Shown: piece by piece, positions 3,998 to 48,567 of the stretch
Position numbering within the stretch: position 1 is the stretch's first letter
Layout of the letters: every line of letters starts with the position of its first letter
Assembly: GCF_001447785.1 (NCBI RefSeq)
Contig: NW_015172562.1
Coordinates: forward strand, 740,861 to 804,860
Reading direction: 5' to 3'
Length of the DNA stretch: 64,000 nucleotides
Source: Gekko japonicus
Taxonomy: Eukaryota
Translations under genes and position numbers: made by a program
Notes under the pieces: model-generated
What the model saw: the letters and a program-made list of their open reading frames with translations, nothing else
The model's database searches: none
Told to the model about the DNA's origin: nothing

Positions 3998-4100
3998 ATG
4001 GGGACAGGAGCTAGTGCTGAGGCAAAACACTCCCGTGAACTGGAGAAGCAGCTGAAGGAAGATGCAGAAGATGCCAGGACAGTCAAGCTACTGCTTCTTG
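3998..4100 (+). CDS. GNAT1: GNAT1 exon 1 coding part ([35 protein letters not shown])
   Basis: ACAATGG Kozak context; donor TTG|GTAAGC at 4101; 3 nt shorter than the canonical 106-nt exon. Confidence 0.95.
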
Positions 4101-8345: not shown

Positions 8346-11300
8346 TCTGATTTATACTGTGTGGCTTTGGTATGGTTTAAATGTTTTCTCATTGATTTTG
8401 AAGTCTGATTAGCAGAAAAGGGAATACAAATACTATAAATAATGGCTTCAAACACTGGAGCAAAGTGGCTTAAGGTGCTGGGCAAGAGGATTTAGCTCTT
8501 CAATTAAAAATAAGCCTTGCCTTCTTTCTTTACTCATAATCAGGAAGCTTTGTGTAAATAATGAGGGGGGGGGGCTTTTTATTATTATATATGTAAGCAT
8601 TTAAGAAGTGCCAGGTTTAGGAATACTGCCATCTAGGGTGGAGGATAAAAACAGATTTCTGGAGAGCTTCACTGAAGTGTTGCCAGGCAACAGTGGAATA
8701 AGCATCTTGACTGGTTCTGTCTGGGGACAAGATGGAGGAGGAGGGCAGGAAGGGAGACTGCAAGGAGCATCTTTTGAGGAGACAGCTGAGGGGACATCTA
8801 AGGAGATACTGCCTTTCAACTGAAGCAAAAGCTTAATCATCCTGAGGGCAATAAAACCTGTGTCAGTGTATCTGACATTCTGATGTTGGGCTCTCCCTGA
8901 CCCAGCCCATACTATTGCCGTCTGGATCCCAGAACCCCTAAAGAAGAGAGAGGTATACATATGTGCATCCCACATTAACAATGACTCTGCTGGGACATCT
9001 TCCTATAAGGAGGAAGCATCTGGGCTCTGAAGACTAAAGAGAAGTATTTTTTTATTCACAACTATACTTCAGGAGTCTATTGGGTTGATCTTTGGCTCTG
9101 TGTATCACAGTCTCATTTTTAGCAGCACAGTTCACTTAAAGCTCCCAATTATCATTTCCTTTTCCCATCTTTAAATAAATAACTAAATAAGAGCTGTTTT
9201 TAACATTTCATTTCAGGTTTGAATGAGATGCAACTGCTTTGCAAGTACAAGTATGTCCCTTGCTGCTGATAGGAGGTTAAGCAGGGCTCATTTAATGGCC
9301 ACAGCACCTGCTTTCTTGGGTTGCTAAAGGCCTCCCTGTGTCCACTATGCAAGCAAAAAAATTAACAGCATACACAACAGAGGTGCTGTCTTCTCTTCTT
9401 TGCGGCTGAGTCTGAGAGGATACTTTCAGTGAGCAGTACAGTTTATCCCAATTGAACGGAGAGAAAAAAATTACAGGCTTCCAAGGGAAACAAAACTGAA
9501 CTAAGTAACTTTTAACAAGTAGTTGTAAGACCATTACAGCAGCTGTGCTGGTTTGGACCAATGGTCCTTCTCGTCTAGCATCCTGTTTCCCACAGTGGCT
9601 TACCAAATGTCCCACGAAAACCAACAAGCAGGGCTCAGAGGCTGAAGCCTTCCTCTGTTGCTTTCCCCTGAAACTGGTATACAGAAATGCACTGCCTCAA
9701 ATTTGGAAGTTGCAATAAAGAATTCAGTGCAACTGATTTGAGATTTTAAATCGACAATGAGCTAAAAATAAAAAAGAAAGCATGGACATCCCTAGTCTAG
9801 AGGGAAGTTTGCTGTTATCTGCCATAAACCATGGGGAAAAGCCAGGAAAAAAGGTATTTTGTGAGTTTTAAGCAAGAATAGTCAAAGGAAGAACATGAAG
9901 GGATTCAAGGCATGTTTTTAATGTGTAAATTATAATAAGTTTGAAAAGTTTATTTTCTTTATGTTACTTATCTCCAGTCATGTAACCTGAAAAGGAAAAA
10001 CTGAATAGAGCTTTGAGCTCTAAGAACATTTTCCCCAAACATATCTTCCTTCTCCAGACAATTCTCAAAATCTGAGCAAAGCAATGAACGTTTCAGAACA
10101 ATTCATTTCAAGATCTATAGCTTTGGACCAAACTGATCAATGTAGAAAAGCTACAATGTCATGCATAAAATCTAAATGTTACAATGAAGTAGATTTAAGA
10201 TAGTGATTGTCCCTAAAATGCAATACTAATGGTATGGATCATATGAAGAATGGAAGTAGCATTACACCATTAGCTCATAAAGTAGCCATGTGACACTATA
10301 AAGAATAACAAAAAAAAATATTCCAGTAGATGTTTTGCAGATTAGAACCGAGTTCTTCAGAAACGTTGGACAATACTAGCGTGAATCCTCACTAGCAGGA
10401 TGTAAGAGGATGAGCGAAAAACAGTAGAGTCAAGGAGCCATAAAATACAAGTGGTATGAGATGAAATATAATTAGTGGACGGTCTATAATTCAGATCTAA
10501 TCAAGTGAAAACATTAGATAATTCACTAATTATAGTCTTAGCAAGGCATTGGATCACATAAGCTACTGTTGGGTCTCAGGCATTCTCCAAGTCAATCTCT
10601 TTTGCCAGGAGATTACTCTGACTGAAGCGGGAACCTTCAACATGCAACACACGTACCCTCCCATCAGTGCTATAAAACTATTGGAGGCAAAGGGAAGGAT
10701 ATCAGAGGATTCAGGCATTATTAGCACCTCACATACTTATAAGTTTTAATGTAGATTTGGTAAATTACTGAATGGTTGATTTCCCAATGTGTGGATATTG
10801 TGCCATTGATGGAGTTAGCTTTCTAGGACTGATACAGAGTGATCTTTTTTGTTCTAACAGGGGCTGGAGAATCTGGCAAAAGCACCATTGTCAAGCAAAT
10901 GAAGTAAGTTTTTGCACAGGCAACAATTCTTAGCCATTCCCTGAAGCAGCATTCAAAGAGTGAGGATGGCAGTAGGATTTTTTCCCCAATCAAGTGCTTT
11001 GCTCTATGGCACTCCTGTCTGGGAGACTGGTAATGTAGAAGTTGGGTACTTCCTGAACAGTCATGGCTGTTCCTCCAGTTGTTGTAGTGCTCTCATGGAA
11101 TGCCTCACACATTATGTCTTAAGAGTATACCTAAGACATTTTAAGCATGCACAAAATTCCAAACAAAACTGGAAAACAAATCATATGACATTCCTGATTC
11201 CATGGCCCTCCAAATTATATTTCCCCTTGTAATCCCCTTTTGGTTGCCCTGTGTCCTGACAGTATCATGTTCTGGATTCATTTCCTCCTCTTAACTTCCA

Positions 11301-14300
11301 CAGAATAATCCATCAGGATGGTTACTCCTTAGAGGAGTGCTTGGAGTTTATCTCTGTAATCTACAGCAATACTTTGCAGTCCATACTGACCATTGTGAGG
11401 GCCATGGACACACTCCATATCCAGTATGGAGACCCAGCTAGAAAGGTAGGTAAAAAAAGAAATGGATATTGTTATTACTTTTGCACTTTAAAAAGGTGCT
11501 GTGTAATATAAAAACACATAATTTTAAAAGTAGACTAAAAACAACACAACCCTACCTTAGGGTTATAGTCTAAACAAACAGAAACATGAACACATGAAGT
11601 TGCTGTAGTCTGAGTCAAACCACTGATCTATCAAGGTCAGTATTGTCTACTTTGACTGGAAGCTCTCCAGTTAGGAGTCTTTCACGTTACCTACTACCTG
11701 GCCCTTTTTGGTAGAGATGCTGGGTATTATTAAACCTAGGACCTTCTGCATGTAAAGCAGTTCCTCAACCACAGGGCCATGGCGTCATCTCAAATTATGA
11801 GGGGAAGGAATGAGGAAGTGGTAAGCAATTTATATAATTTCTAGGAATAAGGTCCATTGTGGAAATAAATACGAGCTCTAGAAAGAGGCTCTGGGTGGAT
11901 GCCCCGGCCTTGGGCACTCAGCATCAATTTTCCATGGCGACCTCAGCAGAGTCCACTGTTTTCTCCAAGGGAACTGCCATCCGGAGAGCAGTTGTAATTC
12001 TGAGTGATCTCCAGCCTTCACCTGGAGATTGGCAAAAACAGTTCCCCAGGAGGAAATTACTTGTTTGGAGGGTGGAGTCTATGGCATGGTACCTTTCTGA
12101 GGTCCCACCCCTCCTCAAACCCCACCATCTCCAGGCTCCCCCCTCAAATCTCCAGAAATTTCCCAACCTGGAGTTGGCAACCCTATCTCCTTCCCAGCCA
12201 ACTATCAACCTACCTTTATCTGCCCCTCTGACTTCAGCTTTCCATCTCCTCCCCCCTCCCTGCAGCCTCTATCTAGGAAAAGAACAGTCTTTCTCCACAG
12301 TGGGGACCAAAGCAGCTAACATCATTCTCATCTCCCCCTTTCAATCTGCACAACAACCCTGTGAGGTAGGTTAGGCTGAAAGTCTGTGAGTGGTCTGAAA
12401 TCACCCACTCAGCTTCCACAGCAAGAACCTGGGTCTGGCACACCCTGCCCTGAAGCACTAACTGCTGCGTCACACTAGCTGTCATGGGGGGGGGCCACCT
12501 CAGCAGGATATAATGAGACAGAGTACATCATTTTCTCCAGGGGGACTGATCTCTGCCATCTGGAGAGCAGTTGTAATTCTGAGTGATCTCCAGCCCTCAC
12601 CTGGAGATTGGCAACAATGGTTTCCCAGGAGGAACAGTACAGTCTTTCTCCACAGTGGGTACTAAAGCAGCTTACATCATTCTCCCCTCCCCCTTTTGAT
12701 CTGCACAACAACCCTGTGAGGTAGGTTAGGCTGAAAGTCTGTGAGTGGTCTGAAATCACCCACTCAGCTTCCACAGCAAGAATCTGGGTCTGGCAGACTC
12801 TGCTCTTAAGTGCTAGCTGCTATGCCACACTGGCTGTCTTAGTTGAGAGCCAGTTTGGAATAGTGGTTAAGAGCATGGACTCTAATCTGAGAGAACCAGG
12901 TTTGATTCCCCACTCCTCCACAGGCAGCTGCTGGTGTGACCTTGGGTCAGTTATAAGTTCTCTCAAGGGCAATTCTCAAGAGAGCTCTCTCAGCCCCACC
13001 TACTTCACAGGGTGTCTGTTGTGGGGAGGGGAAGGGATTGTAAGCCGCTCTGAGACGCCTTCAGGTAGTGAAGGGCTGGGTATAAATCCAATCTCCTCCT
13101 CCTCTTCTTCATATTTAATTTAAATATTAAAAAAATAGAGCGGCTGCTGGAGGTGTCATCAAGACACCCAGAGGGCGCTGCCAGGCTTTGGGTAGCCAAC
13201 CTCCAAGTGGAGCCTGAAGATTGTCTGGTATCACAACTGAACTCCAGACAACAGATCTCTCTCCCCCTGGAGAAAATAACTGCTTTGGAGGGCGGAAGCA
13301 GAATACACAGAAGGAATATGAAGTGCAGTATGATGAGGAATCTTTCCGTGGTCAGCCTCAGATGGTGAAGTGAAACCCAACTCCTGTTTCAATTGTAGGA
13401 TGATTCCTGCAAACTGCTGCACTTAGCTGACACCAGTGAAGAGGGCACCATGCCTCCGGAGATGTCTGACATCATCTGCCGCCTCTGGAAGGACACGGGC
13501 ATCCAGGCCTGTTTTGTGAGGGCCTCGGAATACCAGCTGAATGACTCAGCTAGCTAGTAGGAACCTTCTGCTTGTACCCCTTGAGAGACAGAGAGAGAGG
13601 GTCTCCAAAATAATTTAAGGGTGCGCAAGATGATCCCTAGTACTGTGTACTATTTGGAGAAATACATCTGTCCCCACTTTCCGCAGCTTTTGATGCACCT
13701 TTAGGAAATGTTTTAGAATCTGTATGCCTCTACCTGCAATTTTGGTAGACAGGGAACACCTCTGTCCCCATGAGCTGATGCAGCAGTGTATTAGGCCAAA
13801 AGAGAATGACCTTGTAATTGGATACTGTTTTGAAGTTTGCACCCAGGGTGGCTGTAAGGTGAAGGTGAGTCCAGGAAGGAACAGGCCAAAATCAGGTACT
13901 CTGCTGACCTGGATCTATGAGCAGAGTGACAGAGGAGGGCTCACGTTGCTCCTCTGCCTTCCTTTCTGAGGGTGGTGTTGGCTGGACACATGTAGCATTT
14001 CTCTCCCCTTACCCTTGAAGTGCATTGTAGAAGCACTCTTCTAGAACACACAGTCTGCCACTTACTTTATCAAACAGACTAGGGGACAGGACATTTGACT
14101 AGCCTCTCCGAAGGCTTGAGGTAACTCACATTGTAGGTTCTACATCTTCCTATCTTCAGTTACCTGAGTGACCTGCCACGGCTGGTGACACTTGGATACA
14201 TCCCTACAGAGCAGGATATTCTACGCTCCAGGGTCAAGACTATGGGCATCATTGAAACTCAGTTTTCCTTCAAGGATCTCAATTTCAGGTATCACAGAGT

Positions 14301-17300: not shown

Positions 17301-20300
17301 TTTTAAGGGATTGTACCTCTCTGCCATATTTCAAGCAGATGGGAGACAGGCCCCCATTTTAATAGGCAATTTAAAAGAGACAAAGACCTGTTTTGACAAT
17401 TGAATGAATGTTTCCTATATGCCAGTTTCATATCTTCTGTTCCCACTTGACTCTCCCCCTCTGAGCACATATACAAGAAACAAAGAATCTGTTTTAAGTT
17501 GACAACAAATTACTTCCTATTTACTTCAGTGACTGATTGTTTCCTGTTTACTGCTTCTCAATCTTTTGCCTAAGATCATCATGTGTGTAGTGTATGTTGA
17601 TGACTGCTTGATCAAATCCTGTCTCCCCACATTCCATCTTAATTAAATACTTCGCTTTCTTGATGCTACAGCATCCTTTGTTTTACACAAACCTTTTAAA
17701 ATCTGCCTATAAAAGAAGAACTGTTTCTCCCATCTTTTTGAAATTTGGCATGGAAAATCTTTTGTGTGACAGGTAAACACCCACAGAACTTAATCCTAAT
17801 TGGATGGAACACAAGTGGACTAGTTCATTTGTTTTGATTAGCATTTGTTTCCCAAAACAATGCATAGCTTTGCTTTGAAACAAATGCATAGTTCTGATGG
17901 ATTTGCTTTGAAGCAAATGCGTATCCATGAATACATGAAGGTGCCTTGTGAAGTCATTCTCCCTTTACTTACTGTTTACAGAAAAATTTAAATGCATGAA
18001 ATTACTGTAGCAGTAGATGCCATGGATAATCCAGCACAACTCTATAGACATGATAAATGAGACAAAGACTTATGGAATCAAATAAATGATCTTCAGTCCA
18101 GTATGATAATATTGATGGGAAGGAACGATGCCCAAGGTACTGAGCCACTAGGGACCTTAGCAGGCATCACTAAGCAAGGCTGTTCAGTGTGGCCCCTCTT
18201 TAACTTACTGGCAGGATGTTTGATGTGGGGGGCCAGCGCTCAGAACGTAAGAAGTGGATTCACTGTTTCGAGGGAGTCACCTGCATCATCTTCATCGCTG
18301 CCCTCAGCACTTACGACATGGTCCTAGTGGAGGACGATAAAGTGGTAAGCAGTACCCCAAGAAATCTGACCCTTTAGAAATGGCTGGCAGAATTTAGTAA
18401 ATAGCCCAAATCAGCTTATACTGTAAGCTGGTCAGTCTCCTGTTTCAGGAGACCAAATGTAATGTTGCAGGGGCGTGATTCAGGCAATGGGTGAGAAGAG
18501 GTATTTTTTTACAAGATCTGTACAGGTTTAGCCACCAAGTCAATAATCACAGATTGTTCCCTGATAAGAGTTGAAAAGAAGGATCCTGTTTCTATCAGCT
18601 CTCACAGTAGGAGCTCTGAGCTCTGAGCAAGCACAGGCCAGCTACAACAGCAGCAAACTTAACTAGGAATCAAAGCAACTTTGGCTGCGGTCACACGGAA
18701 CATTAGCCACACTACAGAGACGGAAAATAGGCGGATTTTCCGGGCGCGATCACAGCGCCACATCTGGGAAGCGTAGAGCTTCCATGCCGAACCTGAGGTT
18801 TCCTGCCGAAGATGCGGGGTAAAAAACTAGTACCTTCGAGGTACTAGTTTCTGGAAACCGCGGGGCAAGGGCGGGCGCCTGATCACATTTCCGGTGGAAT
18901 CCTGTGGCATCCGGCGCCCGCCCATATCCCGTCGTGAACAGGTTCCCCCCCCCAAGTCTCCACAGGATGCGCACAAGCGCCCAACGGCGCATGCGGACAA
19001 AGAGGCCCCCTCCCACTGCAGCCAGGCTTGCCGCCTCTGAAGGGTCGCTATGGCCACTGTCGCACAGGCGGTTAGAGTGGCTGTGATGAGGGGGTCCACC
19101 TCCCCCTCCATTTGCTATGCCTCAGAGTTCTGTTGGGGTACGGAAGCGTCTGTCGGCCTCTCTGGTAAGCCTTCAGATGTGCAGATACGATTGCTCAGTC
19201 ATGCGTATACACAAACTTCAGTTTTTTAAAAAAATCCAACCCGTTTGCCACAGAAGCGGCGCCTAGCGATTGCTGGTGTGATTGCGCCGCACCACTTCTT
19301 TGCCTCGCTGCAGGATCATCGTGTGATCGGCACCTGCCCCCTAACCACGGGACCTCCACGGGACGTCTGATCGCGCAGCCGCGCATTATTTTCCTCCGGG
19401 GCAAACAGCCACGCTTCCCCCCCGCCCGCATTTTCCGGCCCGTATGACCGGGGCCATTATTAGATAGAAAGCAAAACTCAATGCCTGTGACTTTTAAGAG
19501 TTGTATACAGAAGGGGACATCTATCTGTTGGAAGATACAGGAATTTTATTTCTTATTAAGTTTGGCCATGCTGGATTAGGGTACTGGGTCAAACTGAAAA
19601 GGGCCCCTTTTGGTCCCATTTCTCTTCTCAGAATCGCATGCATGAGAGTCTGCACCTGTTCAACAGCATCTGTAACCACCGATACTTTGCTACCACTTCC
19701 ATTGTTCTTTTCCTCAATAAGAAAGATGTATTTCAGGAAAAGATCAAGAAGGCTCATCTCAGCATCTGCTTTCCTGATTATGACGGTGAGTTCCCCGCAT
19801 TCCATATTTATATGTAGGAATAGAATTTAAGACATTTCCTATGGTCAGTTGTGCAGCGAACAAAAAATATGGGAACGCTGGCAGAGAGAGAGGCAGTGGT
19901 GTTTATTTGTCAGCCTGAACAAATGTTGCTGATACTTGAACACCAGATGGCATCACACCAGATGGCATCACAATAAGAGATCTATAACACCATCATTAAG
20001 GATCTCCCTTTTTATCTGTGCAAGATTTCCCCCACTACTGTCTCTCTATGGGACAAGATCAATACCTATGCTGCTAATAAAAGGGGAGATTGTCCAAAGA
20101 AAACCTTGGAATATATAATCATTTGTATAATCTACCTCTGTCACTGGGAATGCAGAACAGCGATTTGAATACTTTCATTACTAACTCACCCCTTCATTGT
20201 CTTGTTGAGACACTGCTGAACTGTTCAACACAACCTGTATTTGCTTGAAGGGATGAGGGTGATGCTGCAATAATCAGGTGATTAGCAGAAAGATCAGTTG

Positions 20301-21171
20301 ACAGGAACAGGAAGAGCTGGGCCTGTTGTACTACAGGAAGAAGTATGTTTTGCCCTGTCCAGTTAAGTGTATGGAGAAGACATGTTTATTATTTATTCCC
20401 TTGGTGGGTGAACAACTTGTCTTCTGTACCTTCCCATCCTATCGCACCAATCGATGAAAGCTTTTGCAGTGAGAAGGCTGCATTCACTTCCTTTGTGAAA
20501 ACACCCATGTGTATCTGAAGAAGTGTTCATGGACACAAAGACTCATACCTTGAATAAAACTTTGGTCTTAAAGGTGCCACTGGACTCAAACTTGAGTCTA
20601 CCCAAGTATAACAATCAGAGTTTGGAAAACCAGCCACCAGGGGTCCTCAGTGCTCTATGGGAAAATGCTAGCTTTCTGCCACGTAAACCAGAATTTAGCA
20701 TCTCCAGCTCGCTTTGCATTTTTAGGCTTCAAAATGGTTTTCCTCCTCTTGTCAAACACACGCAGTTCAAATGGAGTAAAATTTGGGATGGTCACGGCAT
20801 AAACTAGGCATTAAATGGCAGACAGGGGCAAGGCTCCTGACTTTTTAAACCTAATATGAAAAACTGCTGAGAGTGAATGAGCCCTGAAGCAGGAGGGGCT
20901 TTGTGTGGGGAAAGGGGTGGTGTCACAGCTTGGCCACTCAGAGAAGCCACTCCTTGATGCCAGCATCCACATCTATGCAGGGCCAAATACGTATGAGGAT
21001 GCAGGTGCCTACATCAAGGCCCAGTTCCTGGAGCTGAACGTGAGGCGGGATGTCAAGGAAATCTACTCACACATGACCTGTGCAACCGACACACAGAATG
21101 TCAAGTTTGTCTTTGATGCAGTCACTGACATAATCATCAAAGAGAACCTCAAGGATTGCGGCCTCTTCTGA
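3998..21171 (+). CDS. GNAT1: Rod transducin alpha subunit, complete spliced CDS join(3998..4100,10861..10903,11304..11445,13399..13556,14160..14288,18215..18344,19632..19785,20981..21171), 349 aa
   Basis: Eight GT-AG exons of 103/43/142/158/129/130/154/191 nt sum to 1050 nt with no internal stop. GNAT1-diagnostic peptides: [78 protein letters not shown]. Confidence 0.96.
4445..4487. other. Assembly gap (others at about 50106-50119, 55557-55585 and 60167-60178)
   Basis: Runs of N; all are intronic. Confidence 0.98.
5183..5385 (+). mobile_element. tRNA-derived SINE, degraded, with L2-like tail
   Basis: A box TGGTGTCGTGG and B box GGTTCAAACTC; similar to 12843-13112. Confidence 0.6.
6045..6495 (+). 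mobile_element. CR1 LINE 3' fragment
   Basis: End of ORF2 ([18 protein letters not shown]-like region) and CR1 3'UTR GGACCACTGGTCTCATCCAGCAGGGCTCTT; homologous to 39700-40110. Confidence 0.8.
6797..7353. mobile_element. CpG-rich palindromic hAT MITE B nested in A
   Basis: TIRs TAGGGCTGCCAAGT...ACTTGGCAACCCTA; perfect 8-bp TSD TAATGCAG (6789-6796 and 7354-7361). Confidence 0.85.
6825..7030 (-). mobile_element. 206-bp hAT MITE C nested in B
   Basis: TIRs CAATGTTCCCTCTAAGCTG/CAGCTTAGAGGGAACACTG; flanking GTGGCG duplication; opposite orientation to the copies at 39333, 42567 and 47560. Confidence 0.88.
8312..8343. repeat. (GT)n microsatellite
   Basis: Seen directly. Confidence 0.95.
10861..10903 (+). 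CDS. GNAT1: GNAT1 exon 2 (P-loop [15 protein letters not shown])
   Basis: Acceptor ttttttgttctaacag; 43 nt; donor GTAAGT. Confidence 0.96.
11304..11445 (+). CDS. GNAT1: GNAT1 exon 3 ([47 protein letters not shown])
   Basis: Acceptor ttaacttccacag; 142 nt; donor AAG|GTAGGT. Confidence 0.96.
11580..11780 (-). mobile_element. Squam3-like tRNA-derived SINE with CR1-type tail
   Basis: Reverse complement matches the copy at 61610-61824. Confidence 0.65.
12843..13112 (+). mobile_element. tRNA-derived SINE with L2-like 3' end and (CCT/CTT)n tail
   Basis: A/B boxes (TGGAATAGTGG; GGTTTGATTCC), GTGACCTTGGG core, tail GTATAAATCCAATCTCCTCC. Reverse 3' fragments at 31960-32092 and 63838-63915. Confidence 0.75.
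13399..13556 (+). CDS. GNAT1: GNAT1 exon 4 ([53 protein letters not shown])
   Basis: Acceptor tttcaattgtag; 158 nt; donor CTA|GTAGGA. Confidence 0.94.
14160..14288 (+). CDS. GNAT1: GNAT1 exon 5 ([43 protein letters not shown])
   Basis: Acceptor cttcctatcttcag; 129 nt; donor CAG|GTATCA; contains Switch I. Confidence 0.95.
18215..18344 (+). CDS. GNAT1: GNAT1 exon 6 ([43 protein letters not shown])
   Basis: Acceptor taacttactggcag; 130 nt; donor GTAAGC; G3 motif DVGGQ. Confidence 0.96.
18683..19455. mobile_element. CpG-rich non-autonomous DNA transposon (PIF/Harbinger-like) in GNAT1 intron 6
   Basis: Imperfect TIRs GGCTGCGGTCACACGG/CCGTATGACCGGGGCC; abrupt CpG-rich composition; TSD not clean. 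Confidence 0.6.
19632..19785 (+). CDS. GNAT1: GNAT1 exon 7 ([52 protein letters not shown])
   Basis: Acceptor ttttctcttctcag; 154 nt; donor GTGAGT; G4 motif NKKD. Confidence 0.96.
20511..20590 (+). mobile_element. Penelope-like terminal repeat remnant (degenerate hammerhead)
   Basis: GTATCTGAAGAAGTG...CACAAAGACTCATACCTTGAATAAAAC...GGTCTTAAAGGTGCCACTGGACTC. Confidence 0.6.
20981..21171 (+). CDS. GNAT1: GNAT1 exon 8 coding part (PNTYEDAG...[31 protein letters not shown])
   Basis: Acceptor atctatgcag; 191 nt to TGA; matches ORF 20905..21171. Probable donor CAG|GTGAGA at 21213, 41 nt after the stop. Confidence 0.96.

Positions 21172-27056: not shown

Positions 27057-48567
<21,511 letters not shown>

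Follow-up and report, generated by a model that had tools for sequence, protein, structure and literature searches.

The Gekko japonicus gene for the alpha subunit of rod transducin, GNAT1, carries methionine instead of threonine at switch I residue 178 (T178M; Gi1 T182), a residue that contacts RGS proteins. This change is real and old, and the changes in gecko GNAT1 are patterned. With a probability of roughly 55%, we consider that geckos keep a functional GNAT1 which shed its RGS coupling by local release of constraint after the loss of rods. The window analysed here, to which all coordinates refer, is a 64,000-nucleotide stretch of the G. japonicus genome.

The window gene was found to consist of eight exons between 3998 and 21171 on the plus strand, with GT-AG borders at 7/7 introns and an open reading frame of 349 amino acids ending in a single terminal stop. 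Its spliced protein is identical to P0186, which is labelled G. japonicus GNAT1 by its source. The features are as follows.

3998..4100, plus strand: exon 1, with the start ATG; the K25 codon is absent between 4069 and 4070
10861..10903, plus strand: exon 2, P-loop GAGESGKST intact
11304..11445, plus strand: exon 3
13399..13556, plus strand: exon 4; a spliced contig confirms the donor site, and synonymous differences are in excess against organism B
14160..14288, plus strand: exon 5, with T178M
14230..14247, plus strand: switch I (G2 motif), R174-V-K-T177-M178-G179; both the catalytic Arg and the Thr that binds Mg are retained
14242..14244, plus strand: ATG codon, giving Met at Gt 178 (Gi1 T182), where switch I otherwise has the threonine that contacts RGS; from sequence, contigs and alignment
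18215..18344, plus strand: exon 6, DVGGQ and switch II intact; A225T (18309-18311) and E235K
19632..19785, plus strand: exon 7, helix alpha3 and NKKD intact
20981..21171, plus strand: exon 8, CATD and the receptor-binding C-terminus (11 residues) intact, stop TGA
48441..48566, minus strand: matching exon of the neighbouring Gi-type gene, RVKTTG kept; internal control

In a tree of 32 rows, the GNAT1 clade and the gecko clade within it were each supported at 100/99. GNAT2 and GNAT3 were found as separate loci in the same genome, and the best PDB matches of the window protein were transducin chains. The window gene is a member of GNAT1, and not GNAT2 or GNAT3. A pseudogene was ruled out by the lack of any frameshift, premature stop or broken splice site, together with the synonymous excess in exon 4. 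Of four geckos with a usable exon 1, only G. japonicus has lost the K25 codon of the N-terminal helix, in frame (window 4067-4072).

As the preliminary description had stated, exon 5 encodes RVKTMG: positions 14227-14247 (+) read TCC AGG GTC AAG ACT ATG GGC, in frame SRVKTMG. The residue number it gave is correct in bovine Gt terms, where reference residues 174-181 are RVKTTGII; the Met is residue 177 of the G. japonicus protein because one exon-1 codon is absent. The same description placed an unchanged RVKTTG in exon 5 of GNAI2 within the window, and the minus-strand Gi-type neighbour, which from synteny we take to be GNAI2, indeed reads RVKTTG. Eleven matches to exon 5 were present in the genome, and Met occurred in the window gene alone, the other ten having Thr-Thr-Gly (the eleventh match, L002, reads RVKTTG).

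The codon was then followed in sequencing runs, 12 of 24 of which, from six studies, held the exon or part of it; two rows are possibly the source of the assembly, and none of the 12 is recorded as RNA. Four runs (X6, X11, X17 and X12) were placed on exons 4-5. In X6 (study P3), one 327-base contig at a depth of 2.9 joins exons 3-4-5-6, intron 4 being removed at GT..AG; no letter differs over 13397-13556 and 14160-14289, and its loose ends match exons 3 and 6, so that the gene appears to be transcribed and spliced, X6 being presumed to be RNA. In X11 (study P5), an unspliced 151-base contig covers 14199-14349, again with 0 other letters. X17 (raw RNA) has about 1-2 reads at the codon, under the listing threshold, and its reads are mostly intronic, while the X12 contig covers exon 4, exon 5 lying outside its coverage. 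The contigs of X6 and X11 show ATG at this codon, and not ACG or another ACx triplet. The Met codon is therefore backed by two studies that are not the possible source, and their matching contigs rule out an assembly error. An origin by ACG to ATG, the sole one-step path from Thr to Met, is plausible from the codons. At window 13897, in intron 4, a 7-base insertion was seen in 3/3 X17 reads, an intronic polymorphism.

Among 269 stored proteins, 258 carried RVKTTG, four RVKTMG, and one each RMKTTS, RVKTSG and RAKTTG, with four outside the pattern. The RVKTMG proteins are the GNAT1 of Gekko japonicus, Gekko kuhli, Paroedura picta and Euleptes europaea; the G. kuhli record (P0010) is a faulty model flagged UNVERIFIED_CONTAM. 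RMKTTS is the GNAT1 of Eublepharis macularius (P0187, a single predicted protein), with V175M and G179S and with T178 kept. Both T178 and G179 were invariant in 33/33 non-gecko GNAT1, 30/30 non-gecko GNAT2/3 and 8/8 gecko GNAT2/3 proteins, the last all reading RVKTTG. The only non-gecko departures from the motif were a turtle GNAT3 (RVKTSG) and a shark GNAT2-like protein (RAKTTG) (P0087, P0151). One Gekko gecko cone transducin record (P0217) reads SRAKK instead of the SERKK shared by all the other gecko GNAT2 and by the G. japonicus genome, and also has V46G, probably through a sequencing error in that record.

A survey of the codon across Gekkota had been proposed, and here it covered five GNAT1 proteins from three families (Gekkonidae, Sphaerodactylidae and Eublepharidae). 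Met proved common to two families (4/5 proteins), but not to the third, since Eublepharis keeps T178 and has G179S. The survey strengthens the idea of RGS uncoupling, because T178M is shared and Eublepharis carries G179S instead. A private allele was ruled out by the presence of T178M in 4/5 gecko GNAT1 proteins. Eublepharidae are sister to Sphaerodactylidae, Phyllodactylidae and Gekkonidae, and the tree agrees, placing Eublepharis outside the other four geckos with weaker support (86/73). On the simplest reading, T178M and G179S are likely two separate events; a reversal to Thr in Eublepharis is a possible alternative. A search for short exon-5 fragments returned 35 proteins, 34 with RVKTTG and one unmatched, 0 of them gecko-like, and so added no gecko taxa; no GNAT1 of Heteronotia or Sphaerodactylus was found among the members listed (15 of 256 and 15 of 137 per cluster). 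No earlier description of T178M or G179S in gecko GNAT1 was found in the literature within reach, which excludes subscription papers and preprint supplements.

The role of this part of switch I is documented by structural and mutational work. Gt R174 and T177 touch the gamma-phosphate and Mg (PMC8252600), and T177, which the preliminary description had named as Mg2+-binding and kept, is Thr in gecko GNAT1. Its view of T178 as the central RGS contact also agrees with the published structures, in which Gi1 T182 is hydrogen-bonded to RGS4 N88 and also held by D163 (PMC8252600), and the homologous Thr sits at the centre of the interface with RGS (PMC3386157). The Arabidopsis T194N mutant shifts RGS affinity from 17.4 to 115 nM (7-fold) with intrinsic rates unaltered (PMC3386157), and plant proteins with Thr-to-Asn still respond to RGS (PMC3386157, PMC11061236). 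Selaginella T192A showed no binding by ITC, yet interacted in a two-hybrid assay, and on its GTPase stimulation the text is inconsistent, giving it both as activated by RGS and as showing no effect; the same paper dismisses the idea that one residue caused the loss of RGS, and reports that plant V189A moves the Kd from 23 to 130 nM only (PMC11061236). Lys at the homologous site of G12/13 was modelled as incompatible with RGS, and canonical RGS proteins do not regulate G12/13 (PMC7572916). Gi1 G183S prevents RGS interaction, while V185F has no effect and H213Q alone a small one (PMC12505447). No assay or structure of Thr-to-Met at this site was found in the searchable literature.

Because Met lacks the hydroxyl with which Thr contacts the Asn and Asp of RGS, and takes up more room at a buried position, RGS binding would be expected to fall, and T178M is predicted to weaken RGS-accelerated shut-off. 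By analogy with the known alleles, G179S in Eublepharis would weaken RGS binding too, and here our prior confidence is higher than for T178M. The signature of a canonical RGS-sensitive Gi/t subunit, Thr at Gi1 182 followed by Gly, is absent from gecko GNAT1, which on sequence would not class as such a subunit.

The distribution of the gecko changes was examined in an alignment of non-gecko proteins chosen from the stored set (33 full-length GNAT1 and 30 GNAT2/3), partial and aberrant models being left out. The alignment has 174 invariant sites out of 350, and gecko GNAT1 alters ten of them, not counting a gap that the faulty model of G. kuhli shows at 103. The changes are E8Q, E16Q, G113D, V175M and G179S in Eublepharis, R138K and N251D in Euleptes, H209Y in Paroedura, and T178M and A225T in four species each. 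Individual gecko proteins have 2-6 such changes, compared with 0-2 in the 33 non-gecko GNAT1; by leave-one-out, 30/33 of the latter had none and the other three had 1-2. Four of the ten (175, 178, 179 and 209) correspond to Gi1 V179, T182, G183 and H213, which are named as RGS contacts (PMC7572916, PMC12505447, PMC8252600). Since the contact list was compiled once the substitutions were known, the resulting P values are taken as indications: on the eight invariant contacts named in the papers, 0.46 changes were expected (P 0.00036), or P 0.003 with 3/9 on contacts when site 178 is left out, and a list of ten contacts gave P 0.001, or 0.007 without site 178. For all 20 invariant switch sites the values were 0.017 and, without site 178, 0.062. 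The chance that Eublepharis alone would change 178 or 179 was 0.06-0.07, and CpG-type transitions could inflate the clustering. Residue I181 (Gi1 V185) is Thr in two geckos; V175M, I181T and H209Y may matter little for RGS, because the effects of V185F, H213Q and plant V189A are nil or small. Elsewhere in exon 6, the otherwise invariant A225 is altered to Thr in 4/5 geckos (18309-18311, a CpG-type context), and E235K/Q in switch III is found in 5/5.

The rest of the protein shows continued constraint. In 5/5 geckos the bovine sequence is kept at the G1, G3, G4 and G5 motifs (P-loop, DVGGQ, NKKD and CATD), at R174, T177 and Q200, and over the last 11 residues of the C-terminus, and the frame is open in gecko species from three families. 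Exon 4 differs from that of organism B (run X12) by 10 differences in 8 codons, with changes at 7/33 synonymous vs 3/123 non-synonymous sites (Fisher P 0.0008); another path for one codon gives 6 vs 4 (Fisher P 0.007). This pattern points to purifying selection on exon 4, for this one exon and this one species pair. Differences from coelacanth number 40-49 in geckos, 32-33 in lacertids and 25 in turtle, and the overall rate of gecko GNAT1 is raised, but modestly. Relaxed constraint, one of the two outcomes that the preliminary description had offered, is supported.

Eight rod genes, RH1 among them, are missing from five gecko eye transcriptomes; no transcript of GNAT1 was recovered from these eyes either, though it is intact in two genomes, and the authors of that study suggested a role outside the eye (10.1101/592873). 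In the G. japonicus genome, one PDE6 gamma gene was present among 23 candidates scored, with cone P gamma as its best match (L012, L013; G000:C12855), and a rod PDE6 gamma was not found among them. The other outcome offered earlier, a slow transducin working with RGS9 in rod vision, was not borne out, given the missing GNAT1 transcript in five gecko eyes and the cone-type PDE6 gamma. A partial GNAT1 transcript, with no protein, was reportedly seen in gecko eyes by Schott et al. in 2019. The RGS-domain exons of RGS9 in the G. japonicus genome are open and keep the EN, WINID and DSY motifs, which we take to correspond to RGS4 N88, N128 and D163; no obvious compensation in RGS9 is seen, because these motifs are kept. 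Just past WINID, one 45-residue exon of RGS9 (L050:6238-6375) departs from the solved RGS9 at three residues (K to T, D to G and K to R).

The preferred account is that the loss of rods in geckos freed the RGS-docking surface from selection, that T178M and G179S arose separately, and that nucleotide binding and intrinsic hydrolysis would be largely kept, so that slower shut-off would make the signal last longer; the remainder of the protein likely continues to serve a role away from the retina. Gecko GNAT1 is probably used outside the retina; our guess at the leading site is the pineal photoreceptors with pinopsin. Gt1 occurs in fish pineal cells and pinopsin couples to transducin (PMC4619617), and pinopsin is present in a gecko's retina and pineal (PMC2781857); the available text of 10.1101/2025.10.31.685797 and of PMC10776941 does not mention GNAT1.

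The same changes could instead have been selected, with a slow, long-integrating transducin favoured in a non-rod photoreceptor (e.g. a pinopsin pinealocyte sensing irradiance in the pineal, or a dim-light cell) and natural RGS uncoupling fixed twice in parallel, by T178M in Sphaerodactylidae and Gekkonidae and by G179S in Eublepharidae. Such an account would fit the alteration, in two lineages, of the two adjacent residues best known for RGS control while the GTPase core stayed almost fixed, and the retention of Met in 4/4 species across two families. We regard it as rather unlikely, as a release of constraint would be expected to leave the same pattern, further drift at 175, 181 and 209 included. 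Nothing can be read from the CRX-type motifs upstream, of which there are 2 and 1 in 1.5 kb where the densities over the window are 0.8 and 0.7. General decay, in which a near-dispensable GNAT1 drifts slowly everywhere and hits switch I by chance, aided by CpG mutation, is unlikely: the greater distance from coelacanth than in lacertids and turtle, the 2-6 invariant-site changes per gecko, the in-frame loss of K25, the low contig depth and the rod PDE6 gamma not found in the genome would all suit it, but the frame and catalytic motifs are intact in all five geckos from three families, exon 4 has its synonymous excess, and the changes cluster on RGS contacts.

A further account places the effect elsewhere, with the substitutions tuning the G-beta-gamma interface or being tolerated by RGS, so that shut-off is little altered. 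The G-beta-gamma face, too, is built from switch I/II and helix alphaN, E8Q, E16Q and E9A lie in alphaN, and the plant Thr-to-Asn proteins remain responsive to RGS. We nevertheless hold this to be unlikely, as G179S is the very swap used in standard RGS-insensitive alleles, the larger Lys of G12/13 at position 178 is modelled to clash, and the RGS9 motifs are kept.

Compared with other vertebrate GNAT1, the window gene has the same eight-exon structure, lies inside the GNAT1 clade and keeps the nucleotide motifs and C-terminus, but it differs in T178M, A225T, E235K and the K25 deletion, and in being undetected in gecko eye transcriptomes (10.1101/592873). The Eublepharis G179S is the same Gly-to-Ser change, at the homologous position, as the engineered Gi1 G183S, Go G184S and Gq G188S, and T178M adjoins it; unlike those alleles, the gecko changes are natural. 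In grasses, rice RGA1 has N195 at the same switch I threonine (Arabidopsis GPA1 T194N), a lineage-level change linked to loss of RGS coupling (PMC3386157), but there the RGS gene has often disappeared and the causal model is contested (PMC11061236), whereas in the gecko the RGS9 RGS-domain exons are open, cone transducin keeps Thr, and the residue is Met, not Asn. G-alpha 12/13 likewise have a non-Thr residue (Lys) at the Gi1 T182 position and are unregulated by canonical RGS (PMC7572916), but in their case the trait is ancient and belongs to a whole subfamily, which also differs structurally in other ways and has RhoGEF partners of its own.

RGS-insensitive Gi/t subunits are familiar chiefly as products of engineering; a vertebrate lineage in which separate branches have altered the one or the other key residue would offer a natural experiment on the purpose of RGS coupling. 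The pattern names, from its sequence, the function that would have been dropped, fast shut-off, and those retained, the nucleotide cycle and receptor coupling. It also bears on a question raised by 10.1101/592873, namely why geckos retain an intact rod transducin apparently unexpressed in their eyes.

Some further observations concern other parts of the G. japonicus genome. Two G-gamma matches (L059 and L066) are without the usual intron and resemble processed copies of L070 and L067. Two exons of the GNGT/GNG11 class were found (L064 and L069); L064 falls one residue short of bovine gamma-T1 close to the C-terminus and may, we presume, be GNG11-like rather than GNGT1. In two cases (L062 with L061, and L028 with L027), small contigs repeat exons of larger ones and are likely unmerged haplotypes.
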